64,000 nucleotides of DNA from an uncultured Candidatus Saccharibacteria bacterium. GTDB lineage: Bacteria; Patescibacteriota; JAQUNI01. The DNA lies in assembly GCA_964555185.1 (NCBI GenBank), contig CAZKRD010000003.1:83943-147942 (forward strand). The letters run 5' to 3'. The notes under the pieces are model-generated. The model did not search any database and was not told where the DNA came from. It saw only the letters and a program-made list of their open reading frames with translations. Shown one piece after another: positions 31,213 through 54,196 of the stretch (position 1 is the first letter of the stretch; the number at the start of each line of letters is the position of its first letter). The position numbers and the translations under genes were made by a program.

Positions 31213-31225
31213 CCTGTATTATAAA

Positions 31226-33791: not shown

Positions 33792-33839
33792 GGTTGGCAC
33801 ACTTTAGTCACGGCTCAACTTAAAGATTAGTGGTTATTT

Positions 33840-35141: not shown

Positions 35142-35151
35142 GCTCTTCACT

Positions 35152-36027: not shown

Positions 36028-36031
36028 TCAA

Positions 36032-36925: not shown

Positions 36926-37683
36926 AAGTCAAAAGACTAGATAAGAAAAAGAACCGCATGTCTCTCCGGGGAGCATTGTTGCATATTAAACGGTTGGGGT
37001 TTTATCCTAAGACCGTGATTGATCTGGGGGCGGCATTTGGGTCTTGGACAAGAAACTGCGTCCAGGTTTTCCCGAGAGCGCGCTACTTTCTGATTGATCC
37101 ATTGGGGGAGTATAGGAACTCACTCCAAGCAGCAGTTTCGGGAATTAAAAAGGCAAAGTATTTTAAAGTTGCCACAGGGTCGGAAAATAAAACCGCAACA
37201 ATCAACGTTCATAATGATTTAGTAGGTTCATCATTTTTCAGAGAACAGGAAGGGGCATCTGCAGATGGAACACCACGAAAAGTGGAGATGAAACGTTTGG
37301 ATGATATTGTTGCAGAACAGGGTGTCTTAGGGCCATTTTTAATCAAGATAGATGTGCAAGGAGCGGAGTTAGAGGTGCTGACTGGCGCAGAGAAGACATT
37401 GACCAGCACAGAGTATGTTATTTTGGAGACTACTCTCTTTTGCAGTATGATTGGTAGCCGGGGGATATACGATGTTTTAAAATTTATGAAAGAGCGAGGC
37501 TTTGTTTTCTATGATATTATTTCCTGTTTGTATCGTCCCTTGGATGGCGCTTTGTGTCAGATTGACACCGCTTTTGTAAAAGAAGATTCCTTGTTTCGGA
37601 AAGATCATCGGTATTGTACCCGGAGACAGCGGATTGTTCAGGATAAGCGGTTCCGGAAAAAGAACAAGAAAAGATTAATTTAA
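36871..37683 (+). CDS. FkbM-family methyltransferase
   Basis: VIDLGAAFGSWT...FLIDPLGEY...TATINVHNDLVGSSFF fits the FkbM domain pattern. Confidence 0.7.
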   Translation: MQKLWEKTINTIFQKAGLEVKRLDKKKNRMSLRGALLHIKRLGFYPKTVIDLGAAFGSWTRNCVQVFPRARYFLIDPLGEYRNSLQAAVSGIKKAKYFKVATGSENKTATINVHNDLVGSSFFREQEGASADGTPRKVEMKRLDDIVAEQGVLGPFLIKIDVQGAELEVLTGAEKTLTSTEYVILETTLFCSMIGSRGIYDVLKFMKERGFVFYDIISCLYRPLDGALCQIDTAFVKEDSLFRKDHRYCTRRQRIVQDKRFRKKNKKRLI

Positions 37684-37772
37684 GGCCCCAGTCATATGTG
37701 GAATCTTGGGTGTTTTTGGCAACACGTAATCCATATTTCTGACGGGTTAAGAATCAAACCCCAATTATGTAA

Positions 37773-40221: not shown

Positions 40222-40884
40222 ATGCAAAATAAAACTTTTGTCGTGATTCCGGCCTATAATGAAGGAAAGCGGATTAGCAAGGTATTGAGGGAGACCAAGA
40301 AGTATTGTCCGAATATTATCGTAGTTGATGACGGATCAGAGGATGATACTTTTAGGCAAGCCAAAGAGGAGGGAGAGGCTTTGGTTTTGCGGCATAAAGT
40401 AAATTTAGGCAAAGGAGCGGCTCTCACAACCGGTTGCGAGGCAGCGCTTTTCTCGGACGCTCGGACTATAATCCTAATGGACGCGGATGGTCAGCATCAG
40501 TCTTCTGATCTGCCGCGGCTGGCGCAAGGCGTGGAGAGAGGGGATTACGATATTGTCTTTGGCTTGCGCCGCTTGCGCCGCAGAATGCCTTTTTCAATGT
40601 TAGCCGGCAATAAGTTTTTTTCCAAGGCGATTGAATACTTATATAATTTCAAGTTGACCGATACCCAGTGCGGGTTCCGCGCTTTTCGCTCTTTAGTTTA
40701 TCCTAAAATCCGCTGGCATTCCCAGGGTTATGATGTCGAGACAGAAATAATCATCAATGCCTTAAAAAATCATTTAAAGTGCGGCGCTCTCTACATTGAT
40801 ACTGTGTATCATGATAAGTACAAAGGGACAACGGTTTTGGACGGTTTAAGGATTTTAATTAAAATTATTGGCAGGAGATTTTAA
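40222..40884 (+). CDS. GtrB-like GT2 polyprenyl-phosphate glycosyltransferase (Dpm1-like)
   Basis: FVVIPAYNEGKRISKVLRET...IIVVDDGSEDDT...DADGQH is the GtrB/DPM1 signature. Length is 220 aa. Confidence 0.8.
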   Translation: MQNKTFVVIPAYNEGKRISKVLRETKKYCPNIIVVDDGSEDDTFRQAKEEGEALVLRHKVNLGKGAALTTGCEAALFSDARTIILMDADGQHQSSDLPRLAQGVERGDYDIVFGLRRLRRRMPFSMLAGNKFFSKAIEYLYNFKLTDTQCGFRAFRSLVYPKIRWHSQGYDVETEIIINALKNHLKCGALYIDTVYHDKYKGTTVLDGLRILIKIIGRRF

Positions 40885-40887: not shown

Positions 40888-41229
40888 ATGACTACTTTCT
40901 TGGGCGTGCAAATTATTGGCGCGATCTTTGGTCTGTTTATGGCCTATTTCAGCTTTATCTATTTTAAGCGGGAGCAATTTTCCCTGCCGACTTTGATTTT
41001 TTGGGAGATTCTTTGGGTGGCACTGATTTTCGTCACGATCTTTCCCGCATCCACCAATTTCTTTTTGGAGAAATTAGGCTTAACCCGAGCAATGGACCTT
41101 TTTATGATTTTGGGGTTTATGGTTATTCTTGGTCTTTCTTTTTATAACTACATCATAATCGCAAATTTAAGGAAGAAGATCGAGAAGGTAGTGAGAAAGG
41201 AAGCATTGAAGGATTTTAGGAAGAAGTAG
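40888..41229 (+). CDS. Small 3-4 TM membrane protein (DUF2304/GtrA-like partner of the GtrB-like GT2)
   Basis: The protein is 113 aa and hydrophobic. The 4-nt gap to the upstream GT2 suggests translational coupling. Confidence 0.5.
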   Translation: MTTFLGVQIIGAIFGLFMAYFSFIYFKREQFSLPTLIFWEILWVALIFVTIFPASTNFFLEKLGLTRAMDLFMILGFMVILGLSFYNYIIIANLRKKIEKVVRKEALKDFRKK

Positions 41230-42508
41230 AATTTAATGTTTTTCGATAGATCTGTTCGTGATCTTGGGCGATTTTACCCCAGGTTAAATAGTTGGCAAGG
41301 TATTGATAAGCATTTTCTATTAATTTTTGATCAGGATTTTTGAGGGTTTTAAGAATTTTTTCCTTCCAGAGATTTACATCATTATAGGCTAAAACGAGGC
41401 CTAATTTTTTTTGAGAAAAAAGGTCAGCAATCCCTTCGCATTGGTCTGAAATAATTACAGGGGTTTTGGAGGCGGTTGCTTCCAAGGGGGACAGGGGGAA
41501 GGCCTCATATTGAGAAGGATAAACAAAAAGATTCGCTTCGTGGAGAGCAGCAAGCTTTATTTTTCCAAAAAGCGGACCAGTGAAAATGATTTTTTGTTCT
41601 AATTTTTTTTGTTGAATTTTTTTTTCTAGTTTTTTTTGATAATTTTCATCTGGTCCAGCAAGGACTAGTTTTGCTTGAGGCAATTCTTTGTCAACTTTAC
41701 TGAATACATCAATCAGGAAATCAAGTCCTTTGATTGGATTAATTCTGCCCAAAAAAAGAATAAAAGGAGAGCTTCCTAATCTGAATTTTTGGCGGAAGAG
41801 GTTTTTGGGAATAGGTTTTCTGAATTTTTCAAGATTAACTCCATTTTTTATTTGAATGATTTTCTTTTTCTTGTCATTGCGAGGAGTCCCGAGTTTGTCG
41901 AGGGACGACGAAGCAATTTCATATGGATAGTATTTTGTGGGGTCTCTTGAGATTGCTTCGGTCGTTCGCTCCCGCTCACTGCCTCGCAATGACATTTTAA
42001 TAAACTCTTGTTTTTCTTTTTTACTTAAGACAAGAATCCGGCTTGCCTTTTGCAGAATCCTTTTACCAAAAAGGAAATCAAATTTTTTTTTGACTGTTAT
42101 GAACTTTTTATGATAAGAAAGTGAGCCGTGTAAAGTGAGGACGCAGGGGATATTGTATTTGCGCGCGTAATGCGAGATCACAATATTTTGAAAAGTGCGG
42201 TATTCGTGTAAGTGAATAAGATCAAATGTTTTTACAAAATGCTTGGTCCCTAAAATAGAAGGGGTGATCGGTAGTTTGATCTGCGGGGATAGAGCATGAG
42301 ATATATTTTTGAAACAAAAGATTTCAAGATTGTTTATTTTTTTCTGTGTATAAGGGATTCTTTTCTGGGAATTCAAAGTATCTGTTGTATAGACTGTAAT
42401 TTCGTGGCCGCGCGTTGCCAAGGCTTTGCTTAACTCGAAAACAGCCCGGGCCGTGCCGCCGGAGCTTGGCCTCGGATAAAAATAAGGAGTAACTTGCAGG
42501 ATTTTCAT
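41216..42508 (-). CDS. Glycosyltransferase family 1 (GT4) carrying an in-frame 123-bp (41-aa) insertion of a palindromic repeat element between its two Rossmann domains
   Basis: The N-terminus is MKILQVTPYFYPRPSSGGTARAVFELSKALATRGHEITVY. Residues 165-206 (..MSLRGSERERTTEAISRDPTKYYPYEIASSSLDKLG..) are encoded by the element at 41892-42014. Confidence 0.75.
   Translation of the reverse strand: MKILQVTPYFYPRPSSGGTARAVFELSKALATRGHEITVYTTDTLNSQKRIPYTQKKINNLEIFCFKNISHALSPQIKLPITPSILGTKHFVKTFDLIHLHEYRTFQNIVISHYARKYNIPCVLTLHGSLSYHKKFITVKKKFDFLFGKRILQKASRILVLSKKEKQEFIKMSLRGSERERTTEAISRDPTKYYPYEIASSSLDKLGTPRNDKKKKIIQIKNGVNLEKFRKPIPKNLFRQKFRLGSSPFILFLGRINPIKGLDFLIDVFSKVDKELPQAKLVLAGPDENYQKKLEKKIQQKKLEQKIIFTGPLFGKIKLAALHEANLFVYPSQYEAFPLSPLEATASKTPVIISDQCEGIADLFSQKKLGLVLAYNDVNLWKEKILKTLKNPDQKLIENAYQYLANYLTWGKIAQDHEQIYRKTLNSTSS
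41892..42014. mobile_element. Head-to-head dimer of the MITE-like palindromic element (copy B 41892-41943 forward, copy B' 41968-42014 inverted), 123 bp, inside a GT1 coding sequence
   Basis: It reads tgtcattgcgaggagtcccgag...cgaagcaatttcata, then 24 bp, then tgagattgcttcggtcg...cctcgcaatgaca. Both arms match copy A (8229-8277) and copy C (43632-43674). Confidence 0.75.
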
Positions 42509-42511
42509 ATT

Positions 42512-43618
42512 TTAAGGAGTTAGTTCTTGAAATTGGTTTGGGATTTTTAGGATTCTGGCAATCAAAGAAATTGCCCAGAGAAACATTAAGGTGCCGTGGA
42601 TGTCAGGTTCTCTTTTACCTTTTGTAATTTTGGCATTGTAATAATAAACATTGGCTTTATGAGGCAAGAGAGAAAAAGCACCGACTTTTGGGAAATAGTA
42701 ATCGTGATAAATGTGTTTTAATTGATTCTGGGCAAATCTTTTGATTTCAGCAGGTTGGTAATTACCACCTGCTTTTTTATAGGCATGATAGAGGACATAG
42801 AGGGTGTTTAGGATATCACAAGCTTGTTTTGATTCGGCAGGCGACCCACGGGTCGCCCCTACATATTTTATTTGTAAACAGAGATCAATTAGTTTTTCAG
42901 GATAGGAAATTGGGAGATAGTTAATTAGCCTAAAACCCGTGATTATTTTCATCGCGCCATTGATTTTTTCTTGCAGAGGAGGTTTGCCACAGTACCAGGC
43001 GCCGTCTTTTGAGTGTTCTAATCTAGCGATCAGTTTAAGAGCAAAGGTAGTAAGCTCTTTTTTGTTTTTTAGGTTGCTGTTTTGTAAGAAGAAAACAAGG
43101 TGAGAGAAATGACTGCCGGCGTCCCAAGGTTTCTGCCAGTTGAGTTTGTTAAGATACAGATTTATCCTCCTTTTTGTTTTTGGGAAATTTTGATAAGGAT
43201 GATCAGGCTTTGCGCTTAAGAGCTTGAGGCTAGAAATTGCTTGCCTGGTCTCCGCACGCTTAGTTTTTTGACCAAAAGCATTTTGGAAGTTAAGAGAGGT
43301 GAGAGCGGACGCAATATTGCGCGGTCGTGCCTTTCTTGAAACTAAAGGATCAGAGATGCTTCCGTCTTCTCTTTCAAAGCTTTTGATAAATTGAATTATC
43401 TCTTTTTTTTCTTTTGAGGGTAATTTTTCTAGTTGATTTAAAATATAATAAATCTTTACGGCGAACACAGTGTTGCCTAATCCCCATTTTATGTTTTCAT
43501 TATAGAGATCACCAGACAGACTATAATGGAAAAAACCGGGCGCTTTTTCGCCCTTTAATTTTTTTAAGAATTTAGGAATTGTATTTTTTAATTCAAAGAC
43601 CCAGTCTATGTTTTGCAT
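42512..43618 (-). CDS. Hypothetical protein (possible alpha/alpha-toroid fold); the annotated ORF start at 43675 runs into repeat copy C
   Basis: The 368-aa core has motifs DGSISD, DGAWYCG and IHGTLMFLWAISLI. The N-terminal MSLRERATARPKQSHSPLN of the long ORF is translated repeat, so the start is probably the Met at 43618 (MQNIDWV). Confidence 0.4.
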   Translation of the reverse strand: MQNIDWVFELKNTIPKFLKKLKGEKAPGFFHYSLSGDLYNENIKWGLGNTVFAVKIYYILNQLEKLPSKEKKEIIQFIKSFEREDGSISDPLVSRKARPRNIASALTSLNFQNAFGQKTKRAETRQAISSLKLLSAKPDHPYQNFPKTKRRINLYLNKLNWQKPWDAGSHFSHLVFFLQNSNLKNKKELTTFALKLIARLEHSKDGAWYCGKPPLQEKINGAMKIITGFRLINYLPISYPEKLIDLCLQIKYVGATRGSPAESKQACDILNTLYVLYHAYKKAGGNYQPAEIKRFAQNQLKHIYHDYYFPKVGAFSLLPHKANVYYYNAKITKGKREPDIHGTLMFLWAISLIARILKIPNQFQELTP

Positions 43619-44675
43619 ATTTAGTGGGGAATGAGATTGCTTCGGTCGGGCAGTAGCCCTTTCTCGCAATGACATTTAAGATTTTCCATTTCAAGATCGC
43701 GAGTTTGATTTGATAAAAATGAATTCGTTTGATTCTTTTGGCTTTGTATTCTTTGTCCTTTAGGATTCTTTTGGCAAAAGTATAGTATTCTTGAGCGGTT
43801 TTTTGCAAGGAAAATTGGGGGAGCCTAGATTGATAATTGTGATAATCATTTTTAACTTTTTCAATTTTGGCAATCACATTTTTTTTGCCTTGGAATAATT
43901 CCCCGCCGTTTTTTAAAAGTTCGGGATGGCCGCCGCTTCTTCTTGCGACAACCGGAAGACCGGAAGACAGGGCTTCGATTAGGGAATTAGAACAAGGGTC
44001 ATTGAGGCTGCCAGTGATAAAGATATCACTCCTCTTTAGGATTTGGCCTAGATTCTCGGGGACAAGCGGGGTTAACCATTTTATGTTTTTAAATTTGATT
44101 GGCGAGTTGCCGATAAAGTACATTGCATAGCGACCAAAATCTAAGTTCCGGTCTAAGTATTGATAGATAGCAAAGCCTTTGCGGATATTTTTTGACCAAC
44201 TGACAGCCACCACTACGGTTTTTCTATTGGGGCGGAATTTTATTTTTTCAATCTGGTTAAAGATTTCAGGGTCAGGAGCATTGTGGATTATGGTTTGGTA
44301 AGGAGAAACTAGACCAAAAGATTTTCTGTTTTGTCTTTGTGACCAGCTAGACTGGAAGACAATGCCGTCAGCAAAATTGCGGGCAAAGCAGGCAATGATT
44401 TTATCTATTGTTCTGTTTTTGCCGCGATAAAAAGAGATCGGTCCGTCAACACGATGGATAATGATTTTGTTTGGGTCTTTTTGTTTTAGCTCCCAGATTT
44501 TTTTAAAAAGATATTCTGCGCCAAAAGGATAACTGTTGAAAATAATAACCTCTGCTTCTTGAGGGGTTTTACTATAGACACCTTGCTTTTCCAATTCTTT
44601 CCTTAAAGCTTGCAAGAATTGATTGCCTCCTCCCCAAGGGCTTTTGCGGAAATTGTAGAGGACGTGGATTTTCAT
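43593..44675 (-). CDS. Glycosyltransferase family 1
   Basis: The C-terminal region is GLPVVARRSGGHPELLKNGGELF. Confidence 0.65.
   Translation of the reverse strand: MKIHVLYNFRKSPWGGGNQFLQALRKELEKQGVYSKTPQEAEVIIFNSYPFGAEYLFKKIWELKQKDPNKIIIHRVDGPISFYRGKNRTIDKIIACFARNFADGIVFQSSWSQRQNRKSFGLVSPYQTIIHNAPDPEIFNQIEKIKFRPNRKTVVVAVSWSKNIRKGFAIYQYLDRNLDFGRYAMYFIGNSPIKFKNIKWLTPLVPENLGQILKRSDIFITGSLNDPCSNSLIEALSSGLPVVARRSGGHPELLKNGGELFQGKKNVIAKIEKVKNDYHNYQSRLPQFSLQKTAQEYYTFAKRILKDKEYKAKRIKRIHFYQIKLAILKWKILNVIARKGYCPTEAISFPTKYAKHRLGL
43632..43674. repeat. MITE-like palindromic element, copy C (inverted orientation)
   Basis: The reverse complement of tgagattgcttcggtcgggcagtagccctttctcgcaatgaca matches the arms of copy A. 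Confidence 0.7.
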
Positions 44676-45706
44676 TGTAGTTTTTTGTAGATTTTTTGGT
44701 AGTATCTTTTGCTGATTTCTGACCAGGAATAATTTTTTACAATGGTCAGGCCGTTTTTAATCAATTTTTTTTGCAAGGATTTGTTTTTGAGAAGTAAAGA
44801 AGATTTTTGGACAAGACCTTTTATCTCTGGCTCCGAGAGCAGGGCGTCGTGTCCATCTTGCGCAATATCTGGTACCATGCCTACGGTCGTCGCGACCACT
44901 GGAACCCCTGAAGCCCATGCCTCTAGGATTTGTTTTGGTCCGCCTTCGATTCGAGAAGTGATTAAGTAAAAATCAAGAGCAGGGTATAGTTTGGCGATTG
45001 TTGGGTAACTTTTAAGATAAAAATGTTTGTAAGGGATCCCTCTTTTTGCTAACTCTTTTTTAACATAACCGCGGGCTGGGCCTGTGAGCAGAACAAAAGG
45101 ATTGTATCTCTTTAAGTGAGCAATAACTTCCACCAATATATCCGGCCCTTTGATTGTTTTTGGTTTTTCGCCTTTACCCCAGCCCTTTCCGTCTTTTTGA
45201 AACGAGCCGATGATTGGCTGGCCTCCCGGCAAGCCCAAGCTTTCCCTTGTTCTTTTTTTCGGCTTGGGCTTGAAAAGGGCAAGATCAATTCCTAAGGGAA
45301 TTACAACTATTTTTTCTTTAGGGATTCCGATTGCAATAAGTTGTTGGCGCGTGATCTGGCAGGAGGTATGAAAAAGGTCAATCTGTTTTTCAATTCTTTT
45401 CAGATTTTTAACGCGAGGATTCTCGGGATCAAGATGAAAGCAGGTCAGGATTCTTTTATTTGAGTTGTGAGAAGGGCGCCAGGTGTGCAAGGACCCGAAA
45501 TGAATGATCTGCTTTTTAAGACCAAAGGGAAGGGTTGTGGTTCTTGCTTTGAGTAATTTTTTTTGGTTTAAGTTTTCAGCAAGATCATGACCAATCCTTT
45601 TAACTACCCAGTCGCCGGGCTCTGTCACATAAGACAGATCATAGTTTTTGCCCTGCCAGAGATTAAGATTTAAGTCTTTGATTGTTTGGATAATACCACT
45701 GCCCAT
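44672..45706 (-). CDS. Glycosyltransferase family 1 (GT4)
   Basis: The region reads EAWASGVPVVATTVGMVPDIAQDGHDALL. A 4-nt overlap with the downstream gene suggests translational coupling. Confidence 0.75.
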   Translation of the reverse strand: MGSGIIQTIKDLNLNLWQGKNYDLSYVTEPGDWVVKRIGHDLAENLNQKKLLKARTTTLPFGLKKQIIHFGSLHTWRPSHNSNKRILTCFHLDPENPRVKNLKRIEKQIDLFHTSCQITRQQLIAIGIPKEKIVVIPLGIDLALFKPKPKKRTRESLGLPGGQPIIGSFQKDGKGWGKGEKPKTIKGPDILVEVIAHLKRYNPFVLLTGPARGYVKKELAKRGIPYKHFYLKSYPTIAKLYPALDFYLITSRIEGGPKQILEAWASGVPVVATTVGMVPDIAQDGHDALLSEPEIKGLVQKSSLLLKNKSLQKKLIKNGLTIVKNYSWSEISKRYYQKIYKKLQ

Positions 45707-46326
45707 ATTTCATTAAATTGAATTGAATATTTTTTTATAGAAAGCCCTGATTTTGTTAGTTCTTTATGAAGAGAGCGAAGGGTATATTCGGTATAATGCG
45801 TTTGATCGAGACGCCATTCGCAGTGCAATTCTTTTTTGTAAAGCGTCAGCCAATCGCGGTTGAAAAGCGGTACGCGCAGCAAGATCTTTGGTCCTGTTTT
45901 TTTTATTTTTTGTAAGAAAGAAACCCGGTTTTTAATGTGTTCAAGGACATTGGAAAGCACAATAACATCAAATCCTTGTTTTTTTATTTTGGTTATATCA
46001 GCCGCTTTATATTTTAGATTAGCGGCGCTAAATTTTTTGCGGGCAAAGGCAATGTTTTTAGGATTAAGATCAAGGCCCAAGACAAGTTTTGCTTTTTGAG
46101 CTAAGGCAAAGGTCAGAAAGCCATTGCCGCAGCCAAGATCCAAAACCCGATCTCCTTTTTTGATATTTTTTAAAAAAAACAGGTGATATTTCAAGAGACG
46201 GTGTTTGGGGTGGAGGCCGTTGTTTAATTTGAGAGCGAGGGCAGAGATCTGGTTGTAGCTAAAGTTATGGAGACGGACAAGCAGTTTGATTGCGAGGAGA
46301 AGAATTTTTTTAGATAAGGTTTTCAT
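45670..46326 (-). CDS. Class I SAM-dependent methyltransferase
   Basis: Motif I is VLDLGCGNGFLTFALAQKAKLVLGLDLNP. Confidence 0.7.
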   Translation of the reverse strand: MKTLSKKILLLAIKLLVRLHNFSYNQISALALKLNNGLHPKHRLLKYHLFFLKNIKKGDRVLDLGCGNGFLTFALAQKAKLVLGLDLNPKNIAFARKKFSAANLKYKAADITKIKKQGFDVIVLSNVLEHIKNRVSFLQKIKKTGPKILLRVPLFNRDWLTLYKKELHCEWRLDQTHYTEYTLRSLHKELTKSGLSIKKYSIQFNEIWAVVLSKQSKT

Positions 46327-47404
46327 AAAGCTTCACTTCTTTTGCTGCAATTTTATCCAAAGAATGATTTTTTAAAATAAATTTGCGAGCAGCCTGGCCT
46401 AAATTTTTTTGCTGTTTGGGGTTATTGATCAAATTCAAGATGTTTTTGCGTAAACTTTGAGCATTGGGTTTTGCGAGCAGACCGGTTTTTTTGTGAGTGA
46501 TTATTTCGCGGGAGCCGGGAACAGTAGTCGCAACACAAGCCAAGCCGCAGGCCATTGCTTCGAGTAAGCTTTTTGGACATCCTTCATAGCTTGATGGCAG
46601 AACAAAGATTGGATAGCGCGTCAGTGTTTGGGGTAATTCATTGTGTTCGATTTTTCCTTTAAAATCAACCCTTACTTTTTGATTTTTCGCTGTTTGCTCC
46701 AGACTCTTTTTGAGCGGGCCTTTGCCAATAAGATCAAGAGCGACCTTGGTTCCTTTTAAGGCGTTGATCAGAGAGAAAAGATTTTTTTGTTTGTGCAGGC
46801 GGCCGAGATAGACAATTCTGTTTCGGGCTTTGGGCTTTCGGTTTTGAGATTTGAAAAGGTTAGTGTCAACCCAGTTAGGGAGGGTTTTTATTTTAGATCT
46901 GGATTTTTCCAAAAGAGAGGCAGTGAGGGCAAGATCAGAGGCGCGGCAAAGCCACTTTTCAAGCAGATAGACAAGGGGGTAGAATAATTTGTTTTCAGAT
47001 CGCAAAAACAGCGACCAAGGGAAACCACTGCGGAAAACAAATTTTGCTTTGGGATTGACCAATTTTGCGAAATAAGCGCTCCAGGCGCCGTCTGTCTGAT
47101 TGGATTTAAAAAAAGAACACCTTTTTAGGATGCGGCGGTGATAGAAAGGAATTAGAAAAGAATAGATAAGAGGAGAGAATCGGCTGTTTTTGAAAACTAT
47201 TTTTATGTTTGGTTTTAAATATTTTTGGTAGTTTAATTCATTTTTATTGCCGTAAGTGAAAAAGTAGATCTTTTTAAAATGTTGAGCGAGAAGATTATAA
47301 AGCGCGGCCTCTCGGGTTAGTGTGCCGTCCCTGTTCCATTTTTGCAAAGACATACCTCGGGTGAAAAAGAGGGCGAGGCAATGGTCTTTTAGTTCGTTGT
47401 TCAT
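46310..47404 (-). CDS. Glycosyltransferase family 1 (GT4)
   Basis: The region reads EAMACGLACVATTVPGSREIITHKKTGLL. Confidence 0.75.
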   Translation of the reverse strand: MNNELKDHCLALFFTRGMSLQKWNRDGTLTREAALYNLLAQHFKKIYFFTYGNKNELNYQKYLKPNIKIVFKNSRFSPLIYSFLIPFYHRRILKRCSFFKSNQTDGAWSAYFAKLVNPKAKFVFRSGFPWSLFLRSENKLFYPLVYLLEKWLCRASDLALTASLLEKSRSKIKTLPNWVDTNLFKSQNRKPKARNRIVYLGRLHKQKNLFSLINALKGTKVALDLIGKGPLKKSLEQTAKNQKVRVDFKGKIEHNELPQTLTRYPIFVLPSSYEGCPKSLLEAMACGLACVATTVPGSREIITHKKTGLLAKPNAQSLRKNILNLINNPKQQKNLGQAARKFILKNHSLDKIAAKEVKLYENLI

Positions 47405-47456
47405 TTAGGATTATTTGTGGGGACTATTTAATGCGGGCGACCACACGGAGTCGCCT

Positions 47457-48251
47457 CTACAGGATTGTTTGCGGGTCAAAATCAGAATATTGGTCTTGGC
47501 CGTATTTTAGTCTCTGTTTATAGAATTCTCTTGCTTTGCGGGCAAACCTTTTTTGTTTTTGTTTTAAGGTACAAGTGAGAGAGCTGGGGTGAGATCTGTG
47601 TTTAATTAAAAGGCGAGGGAGGACGGTAATTTTTTTGTCCATACTTAAGAGGCGCAGATAAAGATCATAATCCTGAGCTAAGTAGAATTTTTGACGGTAG
47701 GCGATACCTTGGTTTAGAAACATAATGGAAGAATGAAACAGGGGATTAAAACGTTTAAGTCTGCGGGCAAGTCTGGCGGGGTTGTCTTTTCGTTGATAGC
47801 GAGCAGTTTCTTGGCCGCTCTGATCAATCACGATCGCGCCGGCGCCGACCAGAAAGACAGCAGGATTCTTTCTTAAATAAGAGTATTGATAAGCGAGCCG
47901 TTTGGGCAAAGAGATTTCGTCTGCATCCTGACGGGCAATGTATTTGCCGCGCGCTAACTTCAAACCTCGATTTAGGGAATAGGTTAGTCCCTTGTTTTGT
48001 TTGTTTTGGAACGGTTTGATTCTTTGGTCTTTTTGGGCAAATTCTTGGATGATTTTCCAGGACCTATCTTTTGATCCATCGTCAATAATAATAAATTCAA
48101 AATCCTTGAAAGTCTGATTTAAGATTGAGTTGACGCCCTCTAGGAGATAGCGGGCTTGGTTGTAGACGGACATTATGACAGAGATTGAGGGAGGTTTTTT
48201 AGTCGTGGACATAGAATTCTTAATTTCCAATAACCAATTTCCAATTTCCAA
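47457..48251 (-). CDS. Glycosyltransferase family 2
   Basis: ISVIMSVYNQARYLLEGVNSILNQTFKDFEFIIIDDGSKD is the GT-A N-terminus. Confidence 0.8.
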   Translation of the reverse strand: MEIGNWLLEIKNSMSTTKKPPSISVIMSVYNQARYLLEGVNSILNQTFKDFEFIIIDDGSKDRSWKIIQEFAQKDQRIKPFQNKQNKGLTYSLNRGLKLARGKYIARQDADEISLPKRLAYQYSYLRKNPAVFLVGAGAIVIDQSGQETARYQRKDNPARLARRLKRFNPLFHSSIMFLNQGIAYRQKFYLAQDYDLYLRLLSMDKKITVLPRLLIKHRSHPSSLTCTLKQKQKRFARKAREFYKQRLKYGQDQYSDFDPQTIL

Positions 48252-48386
48252 ATAATTTCCGAATGACCAATTTCCAATTTTTTAGATCAATAACAAGATG
48301 AATGTTTGGAAATTGGATGTTGCTCACCTTCCGAGGTCTGGGCGCGAGAACAGGGATTTGTTTAGGTAGAGCTTAGAATTTTAATT

Positions 48387-50171
48387 TTATTCTTCTCTAA
48401 CTTTAAACAGTCTCACCCACTTCCCCGTTGCCTGGTCTGTCTCTTCGTGAATCAGCTCCACTTCTTTTAATTCAGTGGGTTTGTAGACCAGATTATGAAT
48501 CAGGGACTGGATTAAAGTTTCTGTTTTAAGGCCTTGCGGCGTTGTCCCGCGAAAGGTGTAGGCTATTCTTTGAGTGTTGGTTTGTCTTTGGATTTGGAAA
48601 TCTTCAGAATTAATCAAAAAATATTTTATTTCGTGTTCTTTAGCATAAGCCACTGCGCTAGCTTCAGGCTCCCAATATATTTTTGTTTCATCTATCTTGC
48701 TTCGCTCAAGATCATTAATCGGGACGAGATCGGTTAAGAAGTCATAATAGTGCTCCTCACCCCAGTTTAGGAAAATCCGCTCACCTTTTTGGGTGTTATT
48801 GCGGAGCCAAGCGGCCATCTGATATTCTCCTTCAGAAAGCGCGGGGTGAACCCAATACTTGTAGACAAACAGGGTTAAGAAAGAGGGGGCCAGGAGGATG
48901 ATGATTACAGCGGCAGTGTGAACTTTTTGTTTAAGCGCTTGATCATACATTGAGAAGTATTTTTTAAAGGCCCAGAGTGTAACCAAAGGGACGATAAAGA
49001 AAATCATTTTATCAAGCGGCCTAAGAATACTAGAGCCGGGGTTTACAAAAAGAACAATAATCAGAATACCGACCATTAGATAATCAAGGATGTAGAACTT
49101 TTTTTTGTACCAGAGGGCGTAGCTTGCGACCATCGCCATTCCCATATTCAGGATGCGCGAACCGCGGTCCACGGTGGAAGCAATAAAGTAACCCATAATC
49201 AGGAGGGTGGGGCCGACGACTTCTCTCTTTTTGTAAGCGGCATAGAAGCCGAAAGGGACAAAGAAACAAAGCAGATAGATGTCCAGAAATTTTTTATCCA
49301 TATCGGTCGGCACAAGGTCCTTGGAGTTGCGGCCTAAGATTTCGATTAGGTCAATACTGCGGTAGTGCATCGTAAAAGCGTTTAAAACCTGCAGGGTTTG
49401 TTCGTAAAACACATAACGGACCAGAATCAAACCGACAATTAAGATAATATAGAAATAGACTTGAGGATCAATTTTTTTGAAAAAGGAAAGAGGAGCAGTG
49501 CTTTTAGTTCCCTCTTTCTTTTTAGGGAGAAAGCAGAAAATGAGATAGACTAAAAGCAGAGGGAGAGCAAGGAGGAAGACTGGATTTAGGTTATAGCCGA
49601 TATAGGCAAGGATAAGAGCGGCTGCAAGATAATACCAATTTTTTTTCCAAGCTCCTTTTTTTGCCCGGGATCTTCTGGTAAAAGAGATGATCGCGATCAG
49701 AAAACCAAGCATAATTGGATACTGCAATAAATCATGAGTGAAGGAAACCACGGAGAGTGCTTGGACAGAAGAAATGCCGGTGTAGAAAAAGGCAGCTGCC
49801 AGGGCAATCAAGTTTAAACCCTTGGCATCAGTCTCTCCTTGTTTTTTGCTCGAGATGATCAGGTTCTTTATTAAGTAAAAAATCAAGACTCCGGTGAGAC
49901 TAGAGAGGATTGCCGCCAAAATACTGACGGCGTGAAGAAGATACTGATCAGAAAAGCCGTAGCCCAAGAATCTTAGCAGGTAGATCGTGATGTCCAAGCC
50001 CTGAAAGCCCTGGTACCGGGCTGCTACTTTGCAGTAAAACCAGATTTCAGTTAGATGGGAAGCGTGCCAGCCATATTTTTCCCAGAAGGCAATGTCCAAG
50101 AGCACCCTCTGCAACAGGCCGTAGCCGAAAATGATTAGAGCGAGCAGTTTGGAGTTTTTTAAAAGTTTCAT
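48387..50171 (-). CDS. Large polytopic membrane protein with a C-terminal soluble domain; putative GT-C-fold glycosyltransferase (ArnT/PMT/oligosaccharyltransferase-like)
   Basis: The protein is 594 aa with about 12 TM helices followed by a hydrophilic region of about 150 aa. It co-occurs with a GtrB-like lipid-sugar synthase and a flippase. No diagnostic WWDYG motif is present. Confidence 0.45.
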   Translation of the reverse strand: MKLLKNSKLLALIIFGYGLLQRVLLDIAFWEKYGWHASHLTEIWFYCKVAARYQGFQGLDITIYLLRFLGYGFSDQYLLHAVSILAAILSSLTGVLIFYLIKNLIISSKKQGETDAKGLNLIALAAAFFYTGISSVQALSVVSFTHDLLQYPIMLGFLIAIISFTRRSRAKKGAWKKNWYYLAAALILAYIGYNLNPVFLLALPLLLVYLIFCFLPKKKEGTKSTAPLSFFKKIDPQVYFYIILIVGLILVRYVFYEQTLQVLNAFTMHYRSIDLIEILGRNSKDLVPTDMDKKFLDIYLLCFFVPFGFYAAYKKREVVGPTLLIMGYFIASTVDRGSRILNMGMAMVASYALWYKKKFYILDYLMVGILIIVLFVNPGSSILRPLDKMIFFIVPLVTLWAFKKYFSMYDQALKQKVHTAAVIIILLAPSFLTLFVYKYWVHPALSEGEYQMAAWLRNNTQKGERIFLNWGEEHYYDFLTDLVPINDLERSKIDETKIYWEPEASAVAYAKEHEIKYFLINSEDFQIQRQTNTQRIAYTFRGTTPQGLKTETLIQSLIHNLVYKPTELKEVELIHEETDQATGKWVRLFKVREE

Positions 50172-50228
50172 TGTTTCATTGTTTCATTGTTTGATCGCTG
50201 CTTTTTAGGGCAACCAAACAATGTTTTG

Positions 50229-51200
50229 TTATGTTTTTGTTTTGTAATTTTTGGCGAATGTACCGGAAACAAGGGCAGCGAGAGCGACGCAGTTGCGCAG
50301 GAAGCTGACAAAAGGATAAAGAAGTATTACAGGATCCCTTTTTCGTTTTAGGGTCCAAACCAGAGGAGGGAGGGTGAGGAGCAAATAAGCAGCAATCAAG
50401 ATAAGTAATACGTAATATGTAATGGTTAATGTGTAAATAAGAAAGATTGAAAAGAAACCCAGTAAGATGATCAAGAGCTGGATCTGGATGATGTTGTCAT
50501 AAGAGTAAGAAGCAGAACCCTGCAGATAAGGACGGTAATAGGCATAGGCCCAAGAACGCTTTAAGAAGGACTTCAGGGTTGGCTTATAGTGGTGCCAGGC
50601 ATGAGCTTTTTTATTTAAAACGAGGCAAAAGCCCGACCCCACAAGCCGTAGGTTAAATTCGTTGTCAAAGGCGGCATTGATCAGTTCTTCTTTAAAAAAG
50701 CGGCTGACGCGGGAAAGAACAGAAGCGCGGTAGATAAGGTTAGCGGAGGTTAAGTGCAGGGGGCTTACCGACTGCTTCTTCATCTTGTATTCTACCTCGT
50801 AACCGGCAATCCGGGCAATCCAAGGGTCGTCCTCAAAGGGGTGTAAGATTCCGCCTACGCCGGCCACGCGGGAGTTCTTAAACTTTCGCAGGTTTTTCAA
50901 AAGCCACCTTTTTTCAATCCTGACATCCGATTCAACAAGAGCGACAAATTCATATTTTTTCGCTTTTTCTAAGCCCCGGTTTAAGGCGGCGGCCTGGCCT
51001 TTGTTTTTCTGGCCTAAAAGCTTGATCTCTCTGTATTTTTGAGCAAGCTTTTGGACAATCTCTCCTGAATTGTCTTGGGAGCCATCGTCAACCACGAGGA
51101 TCTCTTTTTGGAAGCCGCCTTTTTGCCTTAAAATTGAAAGCAGGGCGCCCTTGATCCAGCGCGCGTCGTTAAACAAACTGACGACAAAGAGAATTTTCAT
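50229..51200 (-). CDS. Glycosyltransferase family 2 with a C-terminal membrane anchor (two TM)
   Basis: The protein starts MKILFVVSLFNDARWIKGALLSILRQ... and has VVDDGSQDNS. The C-terminal TM pair is LLIILLGFFSIFLIYTL. Confidence 0.75.
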   Translation of the reverse strand: MKILFVVSLFNDARWIKGALLSILRQKGGFQKEILVVDDGSQDNSGEIVQKLAQKYREIKLLGQKNKGQAAALNRGLEKAKKYEFVALVESDVRIEKRWLLKNLRKFKNSRVAGVGGILHPFEDDPWIARIAGYEVEYKMKKQSVSPLHLTSANLIYRASVLSRVSRFFKEELINAAFDNEFNLRLVGSGFCLVLNKKAHAWHHYKPTLKSFLKRSWAYAYYRPYLQGSASYSYDNIIQIQLLIILLGFFSIFLIYTLTITYYVLLILIAAYLLLTLPPLVWTLKRKRDPVILLYPFVSFLRNCVALAALVSGTFAKNYKTKT

Positions 51201-52657
51201 TTTAAGATTCTGGTTATTATCTTTAGGTCTTTTGTGAGATTTTTGGGATTCCTATAGGTCCTGATCCGTTCTTTTAAAAATCCAAGCCTTAAATAAAAGT
51301 GGCGATAGGCCCATTTTTGCATTTTTTCCAACTCTTGATTAGAGAGATTGGGATAGGAGAGCAAAGCCCGGCGGCTTGGGTCTAATTTTTCGGTATTGAT
51401 TTTAAGGTATCCTTTCTTTTTACAAAAAGCGTGGTAAGGGGTGCCGGGAAAGGGGGTGGCAATCGAGAACATCACATTATTAACCTTCATTTTTTTGAGT
51501 TCTTTCACTGTATTTTTGATGTCAGCGACTGTTTCTTGGGGGCAGGTGCCAAAGACAATGTTGAATTTGGCTTCAATTCTGTATTTTTTGAGATTAGAAA
51601 GCGCCTTTTCAATATCATCGACCTTTAATCCTTTATGGATATAGTTTAATATTTTTTGATTTAGGCTTTCCACGCCGATATCAATGACCCTACAGCCGGC
51701 TTGGGCCAGTTTTTGAACAAGTTCAGGATCGGTCAGAAAATCAGCCCGAGAGAGACAGCCCCATTCTAAGTTAAGGTCGCGGATTCCGCTGCAGATTTTG
51801 ATTGTCCGTTTCCTGTCCCAGAGAAACTGGTCGTCAATAATCATCACGGCCCGAAAGCCCTGTTTTTTGATCAAGTTGAATTCAGAGATCACTCTTTCTG
51901 CCGAGAGCAGGCTGGGCGCTGGTTTGCCCTTGTGTTTTTTTAGGTGCTCTTGCTCGCGGGCAAAGCTTATACTGTTTGGAACGCAAAAAAGACAATGGAA
52001 AGCACAGCCGCGGGAAGTGATCATTACGGTTTGGGGGGAGCGCGAAAGCTTCGGGTTATAGTAGGACAGAGCATAATCGGCAATACTTTTATGCAGGCGG
52101 TCGAGAAGGGGAAATTTATTGATATCAAGAGGTTTTCCAGAGTAAGGCAGGTGGATGACCTCTCCTTTTTTTAAATAAGACAGGCTTTCTGGTTTACTTT
52201 TGGTTAAGAAACGGAGGATGTTTTCTTCTGGTTCTCCCCGGAAAACGATCAGATTAGGATCGAGAAGATATTCTCCGGGCACGCGCGTGGGTTCAGGGCC
52301 GTGGACCAAGACAAGGGAGCGGGGATTATACTTTCTTAACTTTTTGATCGTAAAGAGGTCGGCTTTTTTCGAAAGAATCACTGAATGGATGATATAGATT
52401 TTTGAATCATCCTGGGACAGTGTTTTTAAGAAAGCGGGCCAAGAGAGTTTGTCTAAAATAGCATCGAGGTAATTCATTTTGAAACCCTGCTTGTCCAAGA
52501 GGGTCAGGATGTAGAGATTGGCCAAATCCAGGGAATGGTAGAGTTGATAAGAACAGCCGAAGATTCTTTCGGGAATTTTTTTGGGATTTAAGCTGGGCGG
52601 TTCGATAAAAGTTATTTTCATTGAAGTTTTTTTTGTTTCCAAGCGAGAGCGTCGCAA
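51197..52657 (-). CDS. B12-binding-domain radical SAM enzyme (class B rSAM, methyltransferase-like)
   Basis: The N-terminal cobalamin-binding Rossmann-like region (MKITFIEPP...) is followed by the radical SAM motif ITSRGCAFHCLFCVP (CxxxCxxC). Length is 486 aa. Confidence 0.75.
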   Translation of the reverse strand: MRRSRLETKKTSMKITFIEPPSLNPKKIPERIFGCSYQLYHSLDLANLYILTLLDKQGFKMNYLDAILDKLSWPAFLKTLSQDDSKIYIIHSVILSKKADLFTIKKLRKYNPRSLVLVHGPEPTRVPGEYLLDPNLIVFRGEPEENILRFLTKSKPESLSYLKKGEVIHLPYSGKPLDINKFPLLDRLHKSIADYALSYYNPKLSRSPQTVMITSRGCAFHCLFCVPNSISFAREQEHLKKHKGKPAPSLLSAERVISEFNLIKKQGFRAVMIIDDQFLWDRKRTIKICSGIRDLNLEWGCLSRADFLTDPELVQKLAQAGCRVIDIGVESLNQKILNYIHKGLKVDDIEKALSNLKKYRIEAKFNIVFGTCPQETVADIKNTVKELKKMKVNNVMFSIATPFPGTPYHAFCKKKGYLKINTEKLDPSRRALLSYPNLSNQELEKMQKWAYRHFYLRLGFLKERIRTYRNPKNLTKDLKIITRILK

Positions 52658-53580
52658 AAAGCGCAGATTTTTTCCTGTTCAGCCCGGAAATGTTTAAATT
52701 TTTTGTTTGTCCAGATTTGGCTTAAAGTTTCCTCTCCCAGACTGCCGCAAATTTTGTTGCGCAGATTGCAGCAGGGCGCGGCCTTGCCGTCAACCGTGAT
52801 GTAAAGATGGTTGTCGGTTTTGAGGCATTTCCGGTCACAATCAGTCGCCAGATAACGGAACAGGTTAAACTGGTTAAGACAGAGGAATTTTAAATTAAGT
52901 TTTCTGGCGGCCTTTTTAGCGCGCCTGATTATTCTCTGTTCCTTTTGTGAAGAGGGTCGAGAGAGTTTGCTCCCCGGGTACTTGATTAGGCGAATCAGAT
53001 TGATTTTGTCCACTTTGTTTGCTGCGGCGAATTCGATCACATCTTTCACATCCCGGTATCCTTTTTGGCTGATAATGGTTTGGAGAGAGATCAAGGGGAG
53101 TTTTTTAGAACCCCTAATTTTAATGAAGTCCTTGATATTATTTAAGACTTGGATGTTGTTCTGATGGCCGGCGGAATTATTGTTGATTGCGTCGATTGAA
53201 AAAGAAACTTCGTAGATATTTGATTTAAGCAGATTTCTGGCCCAAGTCTGGTTTAAGAGAGATCCATTGGTTGTAAATTTTATTTTGCTTTTCGGAAATT
53301 TTTGGTTAATGTATTTTATCATTTTGGACAAGTCCTTGTGAAGCAGGGGTTCGCCCCAGCCAGTAAGGGTAATCGTCCGGGGGTGCTTTAGAGCGTCAAT
53401 CGCTTTTCGGAATGTTTTCCAGGTTATGTCCTTTTGTTTAGCTCCGATTAGTTTTCGGGGGCAGATTGGACAAGCAAAATTGCAGCGGTTAGTGATCTCG
53501 ATTTGGATCTCTTGGGGGTAGGGTTCTTGGACATTAAAAAACAAACAAAAAAACTTTTCTATTTTTTGAAAGAGGGCCAT
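52618..53580 (-). CDS. Radical SAM enzyme with a C-terminal SPASM/twitch Cys-rich domain
   Basis: The rSAM motif is EITNRCNFACPICP (CxxxCxxC). The C-terminal Cys cluster is ...GKAAPCCNLRNKICGS...CAFCDALAW. Length is 320 aa. Confidence 0.75.
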   Translation of the reverse strand: MALFQKIEKFFCLFFNVQEPYPQEIQIEITNRCNFACPICPRKLIGAKQKDITWKTFRKAIDALKHPRTITLTGWGEPLLHKDLSKMIKYINQKFPKSKIKFTTNGSLLNQTWARNLLKSNIYEVSFSIDAINNNSAGHQNNIQVLNNIKDFIKIRGSKKLPLISLQTIISQKGYRDVKDVIEFAAANKVDKINLIRLIKYPGSKLSRPSSQKEQRIIRRAKKAARKLNLKFLCLNQFNLFRYLATDCDRKCLKTDNHLYITVDGKAAPCCNLRNKICGSLGEETLSQIWTNKKFKHFRAEQEKICAFCDALAWKQKKLQ

Positions 53581-53740: not shown

Positions 53741-54127
53741 TTGGTTAGACAAAATTTAGATATAGCTGAATTTGCGATAAAAATTATGCCTGAAGGACAA
53801 AAGACGGAAGCTTCACCAACTCCTGCTCAAGGAGGACAAGACAAAGATGTTGAGGAGAATAAGGTCTTGGCGGCAATCAGCTACCTCTGGATTATCAGTT
53901 TGATCATTCTTCTGGTCAAGAAGGAGAGCGCGTTTGCCAAATTCCATGCCAAGCAGGGTCTTATTCTCTGGATCGCGTCAACCATCCTCTGGATTATTCC
54001 CTGGGTTGGCTGGGTCCTGAACATTGTAGTCTTTGTCTTCATCGTGATTGGTTTTATCAAGGCAATATCGGGCAAGTGGTGGAAGGTTCCTGGCGTTGGT
54101 CAACTGGCGGAAAAGATCAAGTTCTAA
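53741..54127 (+). CDS. DUF4870-like small membrane protein
   Basis: It matches the DUF4870 pattern (AAISYLW...FAKFHAKQGLILWI) and has two TM helices. The start is probably the Met at 53786. Confidence 0.55.
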   Translation: MVRQNLDIAEFAIKIMPEGQKTEASPTPAQGGQDKDVEENKVLAAISYLWIISLIILLVKKESAFAKFHAKQGLILWIASTILWIIPWVGWVLNIVVFVFIVIGFIKAISGKWWKVPGVGQLAEKIKF

Positions 54128-54196
54128 CTCTAAGATTTCGACTGGAGACTTAAGAGAAATTAATTTTTTGACCTGTTTGTCGGGGGCTTTATTTTC

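Follow-up and report, generated by a model that had tools for sequence, protein, structure and literature searches.

Gene organization of the glycan operon

The locus described here lies on a contig of an uncultured Candidatus Saccharibacteria bacterium (CAZKRD010000003.1, assembly GCA_964555185.1). The window analyzed, i.e. the whole stretch of DNA, was 64,000 nucleotides long, and all positions given below are those of the window. Positions 41216-53580 are filled by a minus-strand glycan operon headed by two radical S-adenosylmethionine (SAM) enzymes. Listing of the open reading frames (ORFs) gave eleven genes, all co-directional. An earlier note, made from the sequence alone, had counted thirteen, while its own list also held eleven; its gene order was confirmed by the ORF listing and by Pfam and NCBIfam, and its domain calls were essentially right.

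The first gene encodes a radical SAM enzyme of 320 amino acids (aa) with a match to the SPASM model (52618-53580; Pfam Radical_SAM 55.6 bits, SPASM 45.2 bits), and is followed by the gene for a radical SAM enzyme of 474 aa with a weak, sub-threshold match to the B12-binding model (51197-52621; Radical_SAM 74.6 bits). The third gene, GT2a (50229-51200; Glycos_transf_2 78.7 bits, Glyco_trans_2_3), encodes a membrane-anchored family 2 glycosyltransferase (GT2) with a GT-A domain and three C-terminal transmembrane (TM) segments at about residues 234, 256 and 290. Then follow a polytopic membrane protein of 594 aa (48387-50171), a soluble GT2 named GT2b (47457-48251; Glycos_transf_2 123 bits, NCBIfam EpsE-like 146 bits), the GT1/GT4-type glycosyltransferase GT4a (46310-47404; Glycos_transf_1 126.7 bits), a class I SAM-dependent methyltransferase (45670-46326; Methyltransf_31/23/11/25), GT4b (44672-45706; Glycos_transf_1 71 bits), the divergent GT1/GT4-like protein GT4c (43593-44675; Glycos_transf_1 40.5 bits), an unknown soluble alpha-rich protein of 387 aa (42512-43675) and GT4d (41216-42508; Glycos_transf_1 123.8 bits, Glyco_transf_4).

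The genes had been described as joined by 4-nt overlaps or short gaps. Overlaps of 4 nt were found at three junctions, between the two radical SAM genes, between the second of these and GT2a, and between GT4b and GT4c. Most of the other junctions show either a short gap (3-57 nt) or an overlap (17-37 nt), and a gap of at least 135 nt precedes GT2b. For the second radical SAM gene the true start is an ATG 12 codons inside the TTG-initiated ORF, as in the 474-aa ortholog on the sister contig L085, and the first of the 4-nt overlaps refers to this ATG. The probable start of GT2b is ATG 48209; alignments with its orthologs in L085, L141, L166 and L168 begin at residues 11-21. The sister contig is 92-94% identical to the window and has the same gene order.

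The right boundary of the operon is firm. A divergent gene for a DUF4870/MamF-like protein and then pyruvate kinase lie on the opposite strand. Scans for promoters and terminators gave results at chance level and were uninformative for the operon boundaries, and no riboswitch or other Rfam family was found upstream of the operon. The small membrane protein gene and pyruvate kinase (53741-55648) form a conserved synteny anchor. In all CPR-type (Candidate Phyla Radiation) relatives examined (L085, L164, L166 and L167), it borders the glycan operon directly on the upstream side, in divergent orientation.

The two radical SAM enzymes

In an alignment of 23 homologs (31-65% identity) of the first radical SAM enzyme, the only invariant cysteines were C33/C37/C40, C252, C270, C271, C306 and C309. 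The protein was compared with the SPASM motif CX9-15GX4C ... CX2CX5CX3C ... C, which has seven cysteines and two auxiliary [4Fe-4S] clusters. The CX2CX5CX3C part was absent and the protein ends 11 residues past C309. A two-cluster SPASM assignment was rejected, because the auxiliary cysteines are limited to C252, C270/C271 and C306-x2-C309, with no CX5CX3C. When the profile of the alignment was searched against the PDB, the best solved relative was BtrN with an E-value of 3.5e-21, followed by SkfB, and C252, C270, C306 and C309 aligned with the four auxiliary-cluster cysteines of BtrN. The enzyme, described earlier as a SPASM protein, a kind that normally acts on peptides or cofactors, is thus by its cysteine pattern and profile matches a predicted one-cluster, BtrN-like Twitch radical SAM enzyme.

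Clustering with the sulfatase maturases of the anSME family, which the earlier note had named as the finding that would speak against its view, was not seen. The match to anSME 4k37 had an E-value of only 8.7e-5, no anSME family was present among the best 25 of the 52 NCBIfam matches, and an anSME assignment was rejected on the difference between about 1e-4 and the 3.5e-21 for BtrN. An assignment as a PqqE/MftC-type maturase was likewise rejected, as neither the two-cluster SPASM motif nor the features of peptide recognition were found. The CX3CX2C motif begins at residue 33, which leaves no room for an N-terminal RiPP recognition element (RRE) or PqqD-like domain (RiPP, a ribosomally synthesized peptide with post-translational modifications). 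Given the single set of auxiliary-cluster cysteines and the lack of room for an RRE, a peptide substrate is unlikely and a sugar or cyclitol-type substrate would be more likely. The best NCBIfam match was W_rSAM_matur with 139 bits, so far below the cutoff of 380 bits that the Twitch family must be regarded as uncurated.

For the second radical SAM enzyme, the B12-binding domain (PF02310) scored 24.5 bits in the window protein against a cutoff of 32.1 bits, and many homologs of 42-53% identity carry a precomputed PF02310 match. AprD4 carries a B12-binding-like domain and is not known to use cobalamin. The NCBIfam matches were HpnJ with 161 bits over the full length (cutoff 577.6), AprD4 with 91 bits (cutoff 500), PhpK with 83 bits and BchE with 62 bits; the further methylase matches were Sden_1168 (51 bits) and HpnR (31 bits). 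HpnJ was the best match for all 26 diverse family members scanned, with E-values down to 1.7e-51, and in each of the 26, HpnJ, AprD4 and BchE scored at least as high as every methylase family. The best relative in the PDB was AprD4 (6fd2), with an E-value of 4e-20 over the radical SAM core. AprD4 is described in NCBIfam as a radical SAM diol-dehydratase, and HpnJ is credited with contracting the ring of the glucosamine attached to bacteriohopanetetrol (PMC13459092). The window protein was not accepted as a true HpnJ, with 161 bits against the cutoff and no hopanoid genes; shc, hpnH, hpnI and hpnK were all missing among the annotated ORFs of the window.

Profile searches with both enzymes therefore gave BtrN for the first and HpnJ/AprD4 for the second as the nearest characterized relatives. 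As judged by these matches, the nearest characterized relatives of the B12-domain enzyme act on sugars and are not methylases. The radical C-methylation of the GenK/Fom3 type that had been proposed for it received no specific support.

The 594-residue membrane protein

The 594-aa protein itself had no Pfam or NCBIfam match. Nine close homologs were present in 5.8 billion clusters, and a family profile collected 85 representatives (50% identity) from 1.84 billion proteins. Among 45 family members, 24 matched Pfam PMT_2 and 8 matched STT3. A first AlphaFold2 model, built on 10 close homologs, was poor (pLDDT 60) and gave the same top matches with weaker E-values; it was replaced by a model built on the 45 family sequences, with a pLDDT of 88.5 and a pTM of 0.90. 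The model has the GT-C fold of about 13 TM segments with a C-terminal extracytoplasmic domain. In a Foldseek search against the PDB, the best 16 matches were all STT3, PglB or AglB, the catalytic subunits of oligosaccharyltransferases (E 2.4e-10 to 1.6e-6, TMq 0.49-0.57), with DPY19 (1e-5) and ArnT (1e-2) lower, and the C-terminal domain matched the isolated C-terminal domain of AglB-S2 with a TMt of 0.68. The sequence profile of the 45 members found STT3A with an E-value of 3.3e-9 and the AglB-S2 C-terminal domain with 5.9e-7. The GT-C character suspected earlier is borne out by model, Foldseek and profile, and it is specifically STT3/AglB-like.

Near-invariant residues in the family are E42, H146-D147, D285 and R336/R339, which are candidates for the catalytic acidic residues of EL1, TM3/EL2 and EL5 and for the phosphate-binding arginine of this GT-C type. 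D147, in the sequence FTHD, falls on the YDNE motif of STT3A, D285 on the glutamate of SVSE and R336 on a conserved arginine, in an alignment which is weak in the TM region (i-E 0.41). The WD[HR]GY motif (WDxGY) of the wider family aligns with WWDYGY, containing the WWDYG motif by which the +2 Ser/Thr of the sequon is bound, and the window clade has NWGEEH at residues 469-474. The protein is accordingly described as a predicted GT-C glycosyltransferase with clear STT3/AglB/PglB affinity and a degenerate WWDYG motif, and its acceptor recognition has probably diverged from that of the sequon-reading oligosaccharyltransferases. In the 168 loci searched the family was found on CPR-type contigs only, and it is thus not part of the cross-phylum cassette described below. 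The named members of the wider family that were looked up are mostly archaeal (Altiarchaeota, Methanofastidiosia) and labelled GT39 by NCBI, which suggests transfer between archaea and CPR bacteria.

The lipid-type GT2 enzymes and their partners

To the left of the operon, on the plus strand, lies the gene for a further GT2 of 220 aa, GT2c (40222-40884). The best PDB sequence matches of GT2c were ArnC (2.5e-10), DPMS and GtrB sll0501, and the best NCBIfam matches were PpgS with 117.8 bits and AglJ with 95.6 bits, both below their cutoffs. Four nucleotides after its stop, immediately downstream, begins the gene for a DUF2304 protein with three TM segments (40888-41229, plus strand; 64.3 bits, cutoff 25.5). 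Small proteins of this GacJ/Rv3632 type activate a polyprenyl-phosphate sugar synthase, the product of which is used by a GT-C (bioRxiv 10.1101/180810). These matches support the earlier description of the pair as a GtrB-like GT2 of the polyprenyl-phosphate type with a small membrane partner. A Wzx-type flippase gene (38904-40154, minus strand; Polysacc_synt 59.3 bits), with eight TM segments by hydropathy, is convergent to the GT2c and DUF2304 genes. Its ortholog in L166 and L167 is 50% identical and has the same position.

Orthologs of GT2a were found beside the radical SAM pair in L001 (38% identical) and translationally coupled to the GT-C gene in L166 (51% identical). The two genes overlap in L164, L166 and L167, and in L164 they are the only glycan genes on the contig. 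The gene order SPASM-B12-GT2a-PMT_2 was found in L091 and GT2-SPASM-PMT_2 in L084, and PMT-type proteins were also present in L008 and L121. The GT2a module is thus repeatedly followed by a GT-C, whose family varies, a pattern expected of a lipid-linked-donor synthase and its transferase. After the GT2a/GT-C pair, L164 has a type IV pilin-like gene (8271-8786 of that contig, minus strand), whose product has the N-terminus FTLIELLVV, a Pfam N_methyl match and two N-X-S/T sequons (NST and NGT). This pilin-like protein is a possible acceptor, in one lineage only.

Conservation of the radical tailoring cassette

The synteny sample consisted of 80 genome loci and 78 metagenome loci, of which 69 carry a close homolog of the B12-domain enzyme. 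The homolog lists of the two radical SAM enzymes shared contigs widely. The order Twitch enzyme, B12-domain enzyme, GT2 of about 320 aa was kept in L001 and L002 (Chloroflexi), in several genome loci and in many metagenome loci. Of the loci with a close B12-domain homolog, 33 had flanks of 2.5 kb or more on each side; in these, a Twitch gene was present within 3.5 kb in 23, GT2a in 19 and both in 15. Clustering of the neighbours in the 69 loci gave B12 (58 loci), GT2a (38), SPASM (37), a 243-aa GT2 similar to GT2c (18), GT4d-like proteins (13) and DUF2304 (10), and no other neighbour family occurred in more than 7 of the 69. These six recurrent families correspond to the window genes B12, GT2a, SPASM, GT2c, GT4d and DUF2304. 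The hosts are Chloroflexi, Nitrospinota, Planctomycetota/Brocadiales, Acidobacteriota, CPR bacteria and some archaea. The Twitch enzyme, the B12-domain enzyme and GT2a, the last as its hub, form a cassette that is conserved in dozens of loci from different phyla, often with a PpgS-like GT2, DUF2304 and a GT4, and sometimes with a GT-C after it. Synteny of the radical SAM genes with glycosyltransferase genes, on which the earlier proposal depended, is hereby documented in many relatives. The cassette falls under no curated family, and literature searches yielded no paper describing it.

Among named relatives, the one closest to the 594-aa protein comes from 'Candidatus Torokbacteria', a CPR group. 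Two Torokbacteria-like loci, L166 and L167, start at the same pyruvate kinase/MamF anchor as the window and have the order GT2a-GT-C-GT2b-GT4a-methyltransferase-GT4b-GT4c-(methyltransferase)-387-aa unknown-(methyltransferase)-Wzx, collinear with the window. Identity to the window genes was 50-62%, except for GT4c with 28%. Exactly five genes are missing from these loci, namely SPASM, B12, GT4d, GT2c and DUF2304. In the window these five accessory genes lie at both ends of the collinear block, and in other phyla they are contiguous with GT2a, which is the behaviour of a single accessory unit working with GT2a.

Two further observations were made around the cassette. A second B12-domain radical SAM paralog, about 25% identical, is located just upstream of the Twitch gene in L001-L004, L008, L020, L086, L087, L094, L096, L097, L099, L105, L111, L113, L125 and L144, and is absent from the window and its close relatives. 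Furthermore, in L001 (3061-7553) the neighbours of the Twitch gene are ATP sulfurylase, adenosine phosphosulfate (APS) kinase, several proteins of the type I phosphodiesterase family (Pfam Phosphodiest) and a SelD/NifS-like fusion, and in L083 (Brocadia; 11033-11644) an APS kinase gene is directly downstream of the Twitch gene. Sulfate-activation genes beside the Twitch gene in unrelated lineages give a hint of sulfated glycans.

Proposed function and alternative explanations

The locus may serve surface glycosylation on a lipid carrier in a CPR-type bacterium, with the radical tailoring cassette as a conserved accessory inserted into this system. We give this reading an even chance of being correct. 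The general outline of lipid-linked assembly, flipping and extracytoplasmic transfer, already suggested in the earlier note, is supported by the genes present. On the cytoplasmic face, polyprenyl phosphate would receive a sugar from a nucleotide donor through GT2a, and separately through GT2c with its DUF2304 partner. The two radical SAM enzymes would then remodel the sugar on the lipid, or do so just before loading. The BtrN-like enzyme would oxidize a secondary alcohol to a ketone, and a radical rearrangement or dehydration would fall to the HpnJ/AprD4-like enzyme. The product would then be no simple C-methyl sugar but a deoxy-keto, rearranged or carbocyclic one. GT4d and the other cytoplasmic glycosyltransferases and methyltransferases would build and decorate the glycan, Wzx would flip the lipid-linked product, and the STT3-like GT-C would transfer the sugar or glycan to an extracytoplasmic acceptor, with a surface protein as the leading guess. 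The oxidation and the rearrangement or dehydration are taken from the nearest relatives of the two enzymes, and the odds that this chemistry applies here are about even. There are precedents for tailoring enzymes inside systems of synthase, flippase and GT-C (PMC11127046), and HpnJ and Cds provide one for the remodelling of sugars on a lipid by radical chemistry (PMC13459092).

Several observations weigh against such a system. Every cassette enzyme scored below the cutoffs of the curated families, so that every substrate assignment is made by analogy. No initiating phosphoglycosyltransferase was found in the window. The best PDB matches of GT2a were generic GT2 N-termini, with DPMS at only 2e-5, and without specific similarity to polyprenyl-phosphate GT2s its acceptor could instead be a membrane lipid or a lipid-linked glycan. 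In most cassette loci the available sequence does not include a GT-C, and many Twitch homologs of Nitrospinota and some of Brocadiales have no adjacent B12-domain partner. The replacement of WDxGY, the WWDYG equivalent, by NWGEEH makes protein N-glycosylation doubtful. Finally, GT4d may be impaired by an insertion of 38 aa derived from a repeat element.

A first alternative is that the locus makes the head group of a glycolipid, in a pathway like that of HpnI/HpnK/HpnJ or of calditol synthase. Here GT2a would glycosylate a membrane lipid, the HpnJ-like enzyme, helped by the Twitch enzyme, would contract or rearrange the ring to an ether-linked, hydrolysis-resistant carbocyclic head group, and the GT-C and other glycosyltransferases would serve a separate glycan. 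HpnJ was by far the best curated match in all 26 family members, and the gene next after the HpnJ-like one encodes a GT2, which parallels the functional pairing of HpnI with HpnJ (PMC13459092). GT2a is also closer to lipid or processive-type GT2s (Glyco_trans_2_3, MftF) than to the polyprenyl-phosphate GT2s, the GT2 beside the Twitch homolog in L084 has a weak Glyco_transf_21 match, and the lack of a GT-C in most cassette loci fits as well. However, the HpnJ score is far below the 577-bit cutoff, GT2a had no HpnI match at E<=0.01, and no HpnK-type deacetylase, hopanoid gene or other dedicated lipid gene was found in the window. The coupling of GT2a to the GT-C in the CPR lineage, the PMT_2 protein after GT2a in L091 and the membership of a probable polyprenyl-phosphate GT2 and DUF2304 in the cassette also speak against it, and we consider this pathway unlikely. 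A C-methylation of the sugar by a class B, cobalamin-dependent radical SAM methylase (GenK/Fom3-like), with the Twitch enzyme as an epimerase or dehydrogenase on the same sugar, would agree with the B12-binding-like N-terminal domain (24.5 bits, with many homologs passing PF02310), with the matches to PhpK, Sden_1168 and HpnR (83, 51 and 31 bits), and with the second B12-domain paralog in many loci, as in sequential methylation pathways. It is somewhat less likely still, since in all 26 members the non-methylating HpnJ, AprD4 and BchE equalled or outscored every methylase family, AprD4 was the only solved relative with a strong sequence match and at least three conventional SAM methyltransferases are already present at the locus.

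Two further explanations place the substrate outside the sugar. The radical SAM enzymes could act on a lipid moiety, i.e. the polyprenyl carrier or a membrane lipid, by cross-linking, cyclization or methylation like Tes, Grs, Mss or HpnP/R, with the glycosyltransferases as mere neighbours. Both proteins had weak matches to lipid-modifying radical SAM enzymes (Tes 56 bits, rSAM_ladder_B12 55 bits), and Brocadiales, Nitrospinota and Chloroflexi, groups with unusual lipids going by record names, are rich in the cassette. Yet these matches are generic and much weaker than those to HpnJ or BtrN, and the tight, order-conserved linkage is to glycosyltransferase genes and not to genes of lipid synthesis, making a lipid target very improbable. 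The maturation of a peptide or small protein which is then glycosylated (RiPP-like or as a glycoprotein cross-link), an option raised in the earlier note, has in its favour the Pfam SPASM match, many NCBIfam peptide maturases at E-values of 1e-10 to 1e-17 and SkfB as the second PDB match. It conflicts with the cysteines for one auxiliary cluster only, the end of the protein 11 residues after the CxxC, the early CX3CX2C motif without an RRE domain and the neighbours, which are consistently glycosyltransferases, with no conserved small ORF beside the Twitch gene in the window, L001, L002 or L085. We regard this option as scarcely credible.

Radical SAM enzymes have established roles in the tailoring of antibiotic sugars and in the chemistry of lipid head groups; to our knowledge they are hardly known in ordinary cell-surface glycan assembly. 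The parts and the overall logic are known, and what is new is the tailoring cassette with two radical SAM enzymes joined to lipid-type GT2s, here feeding an STT3-like GT-C in a CPR bacterium. The cassette is compact and order-conserved; alongside a pair of lipid-type GT2s, DUF2304 and a GT4 it has two radical SAM enzymes or, often, three. Its product, once defined, would add a new reaction to glycobiology, and the cassette could explain unidentified sugars or lipids in uncultured anaerobes. The 594-aa family links PMT_2/GT39 with STT3/GT66, and its presence in CPR bacteria bears on episymbiont surface decoration and gene flow from archaea. A bolder version, to which we assign a low probability, is that the cassette is a widespread unrecognized pathway converting a lipid-linked hexose into an unprecedented sugar (ring-contracted carbocyclic or deoxy-keto), which would here be attached by an archaeal-type STT3 relative to surface proteins, e.g. 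type IV pilins. Were this so, radical chemistry of a new class would operate on the sugars of cell-surface glycans, and the Candidate Phyla Radiation would possess protein glycosylation of the oligosaccharyltransferase type.

Comparison with known systems

A close parallel may be drawn to GacI/GacJ/GacK/GacL, which add the N-acetylglucosamine side chain of the group A carbohydrate of Streptococcus, and PpgS/Rv3632/Rv3779, which add galactosamine to mycobacterial arabinan. In these systems a GT2 synthase with an adjacent DUF2304 activator works together with a Wzx-type flippase and with a GT-C acting outside the membrane (bioRxiv 10.1101/180810), and the window has all four parts, the synthase as a putative one. 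Unlike in these systems, the GT-C of the window is STT3/AglB-like and not GacL/ArnT-like, it is coupled to a second, TM-anchored GT2, two radical SAM enzymes are added, and the PpgS score is 118 bits against a cutoff of 370 bits. The three-component pentofuranose systems, in which a PPPRS, a MATE flippase and a GT136 GT-C act with auxiliary epimerases (PMC11127046), share the logic of a lipid-linked donor, an optional tailoring enzyme, a flippase and a GT-C. The families of synthase, flippase and GT-C all differ, however, and tailoring in the window would be by radical SAM enzymes and not by epimerases.

The archaeal Agl and Campylobacter Pgl systems (GT66) resemble the window in the GT-C fold including the C-terminal domain, in the profile homology to STT3A and AglB-S2, and in the alignment of the family WDxGY with WWDYGY, of an acidic residue with the SVSE/TIXE glutamate and of a conserved arginine. 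An AglJ-like GT2, a UDP-sugar dehydrogenase, methyltransferases, several cytoplasmic glycosyltransferases and a flippase are also shared. In contrast, the window protein has no Pfam STT3 match and carries the clade motif NWGEEH, no phosphoglycosyltransferase was seen, and the family is named GT39 by NCBI.

BtrN is the 2-deoxy-scyllo-inosamine dehydrogenase of butirosin biosynthesis and the founding Twitch radical SAM enzyme, with a carbohydrate-type substrate. The window enzyme shares its CX3CX2C motif and single auxiliary cluster, the four ligand cysteines of BtrN falling on invariant cysteines of the family. The relationship is nevertheless distant (E 3.5e-21 with the family profile), the window protein is 50 residues longer, and its best curated match, W_rSAM_matur, is itself uncharacterized. 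AprD4, which takes part in the C3' deoxygenation of the aminoglycoside sugar of apramycin, is the best solved relative of the B12-domain enzyme over the radical SAM core (4e-20), yet the score was 91 against a cutoff of 500 bits and no AprD3-like reductase partner was identified. HpnI/HpnK/HpnJ, which form the cyclitol ether of bacteriohopanetetrol, and the calditol synthase Cds are known for contracting the ring of a hexosamine or hexose bound to a lipid, by radical chemistry (PMC13459092). A GT2 adjoins an HpnJ-like B12-domain enzyme in the window as well, but its score is far below the HpnJ cutoff, HpnI, HpnK and hopanoid genes are lacking, and the Twitch enzyme and the PpgS/DUF2304/GT4 set are absent from the hopanoid pathway.

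Flanking genes and repeat element

The plus-strand region at 29249-38876 was found with Pfam and NCBIfam to contain genes for sugar activation and tailoring, namely an Fcl-like short-chain dehydrogenase/reductase (SDR), an SDR epimerase, an unknown protein of 343 aa, NAD synthase, a class I methyltransferase, a UDP-glucose/GDP-mannose dehydrogenase, two GT2s, an FkbM methyltransferase and a GT4. Most of the flanking genes named in the earlier note were recovered: the GtrB-like GT2 with its small partner, Wzx, FkbM and class I methyltransferases, the dehydrogenase and the Fcl-like SDR. The supposed GDP-mannose 3,5-epimerase, on the other hand, is only a generic SDR epimerase. The Fcl-like SDR (within 29249-32257) scored 266 bits against a cutoff of 500 bits, with the generic SDR epimerase as its partner. 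No GDP-mannose 4,6-dehydratase was found in the window by the Pfam and NCBIfam scans, so the route to GDP-L-fucose, a donor that the locus had been credited with, is incomplete as seen here. The ORF next after the SDR pair (31226-32257, 343 aa) had no Pfam or NCBIfam match.

The 387-aa protein of the operon, with a probable start near 43618, had a weak match to the Prenyltrans alpha-alpha toroid (E 0.004), nothing in NCBIfam or in a PDB sequence search, and no TM segments. Its orthologs are 76% identical in L085 and 54% in L166 and L167.

A palindromic repeat element of about 121 bp with the termini GTCATTGCGAG and CTCGCAATGAC is located inside GT4d (41873-41993), as found by reading of the sequence and by pattern matching; matches to its pattern in the window were at 41873, 41983, 43663 and 8230. 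The repeat (GTCATTGCGAG...CTCGCAATGAC) sits in frame and adds 38 aa (residues 175-212) that are absent from the L001 ortholog. GT4d is 34% identical to the GT4 that ends the L001 cassette, with residues 175-212 as an unmatched insertion. A half copy of the repeat (43633-43673) creates an apparent overlap of 83 nt (43593-43675) between the ORFs 43593-44675 and 42512-43675. The C-terminal 22 codons of GT4c run into the repeat element, and its L085 ortholog is 338 aa long. A further copy of the repeat terminus is present at 8230-8240.

Three tRNA genes were called in the window. tRNA-Leu(CAG) at 17003-17088 was called by ARAGORN and not reported by the Rfam scan at gathering threshold, and the other two, Ser-GGA at 56483 and Asn at 62790, were called by both ARAGORN and Rfam.

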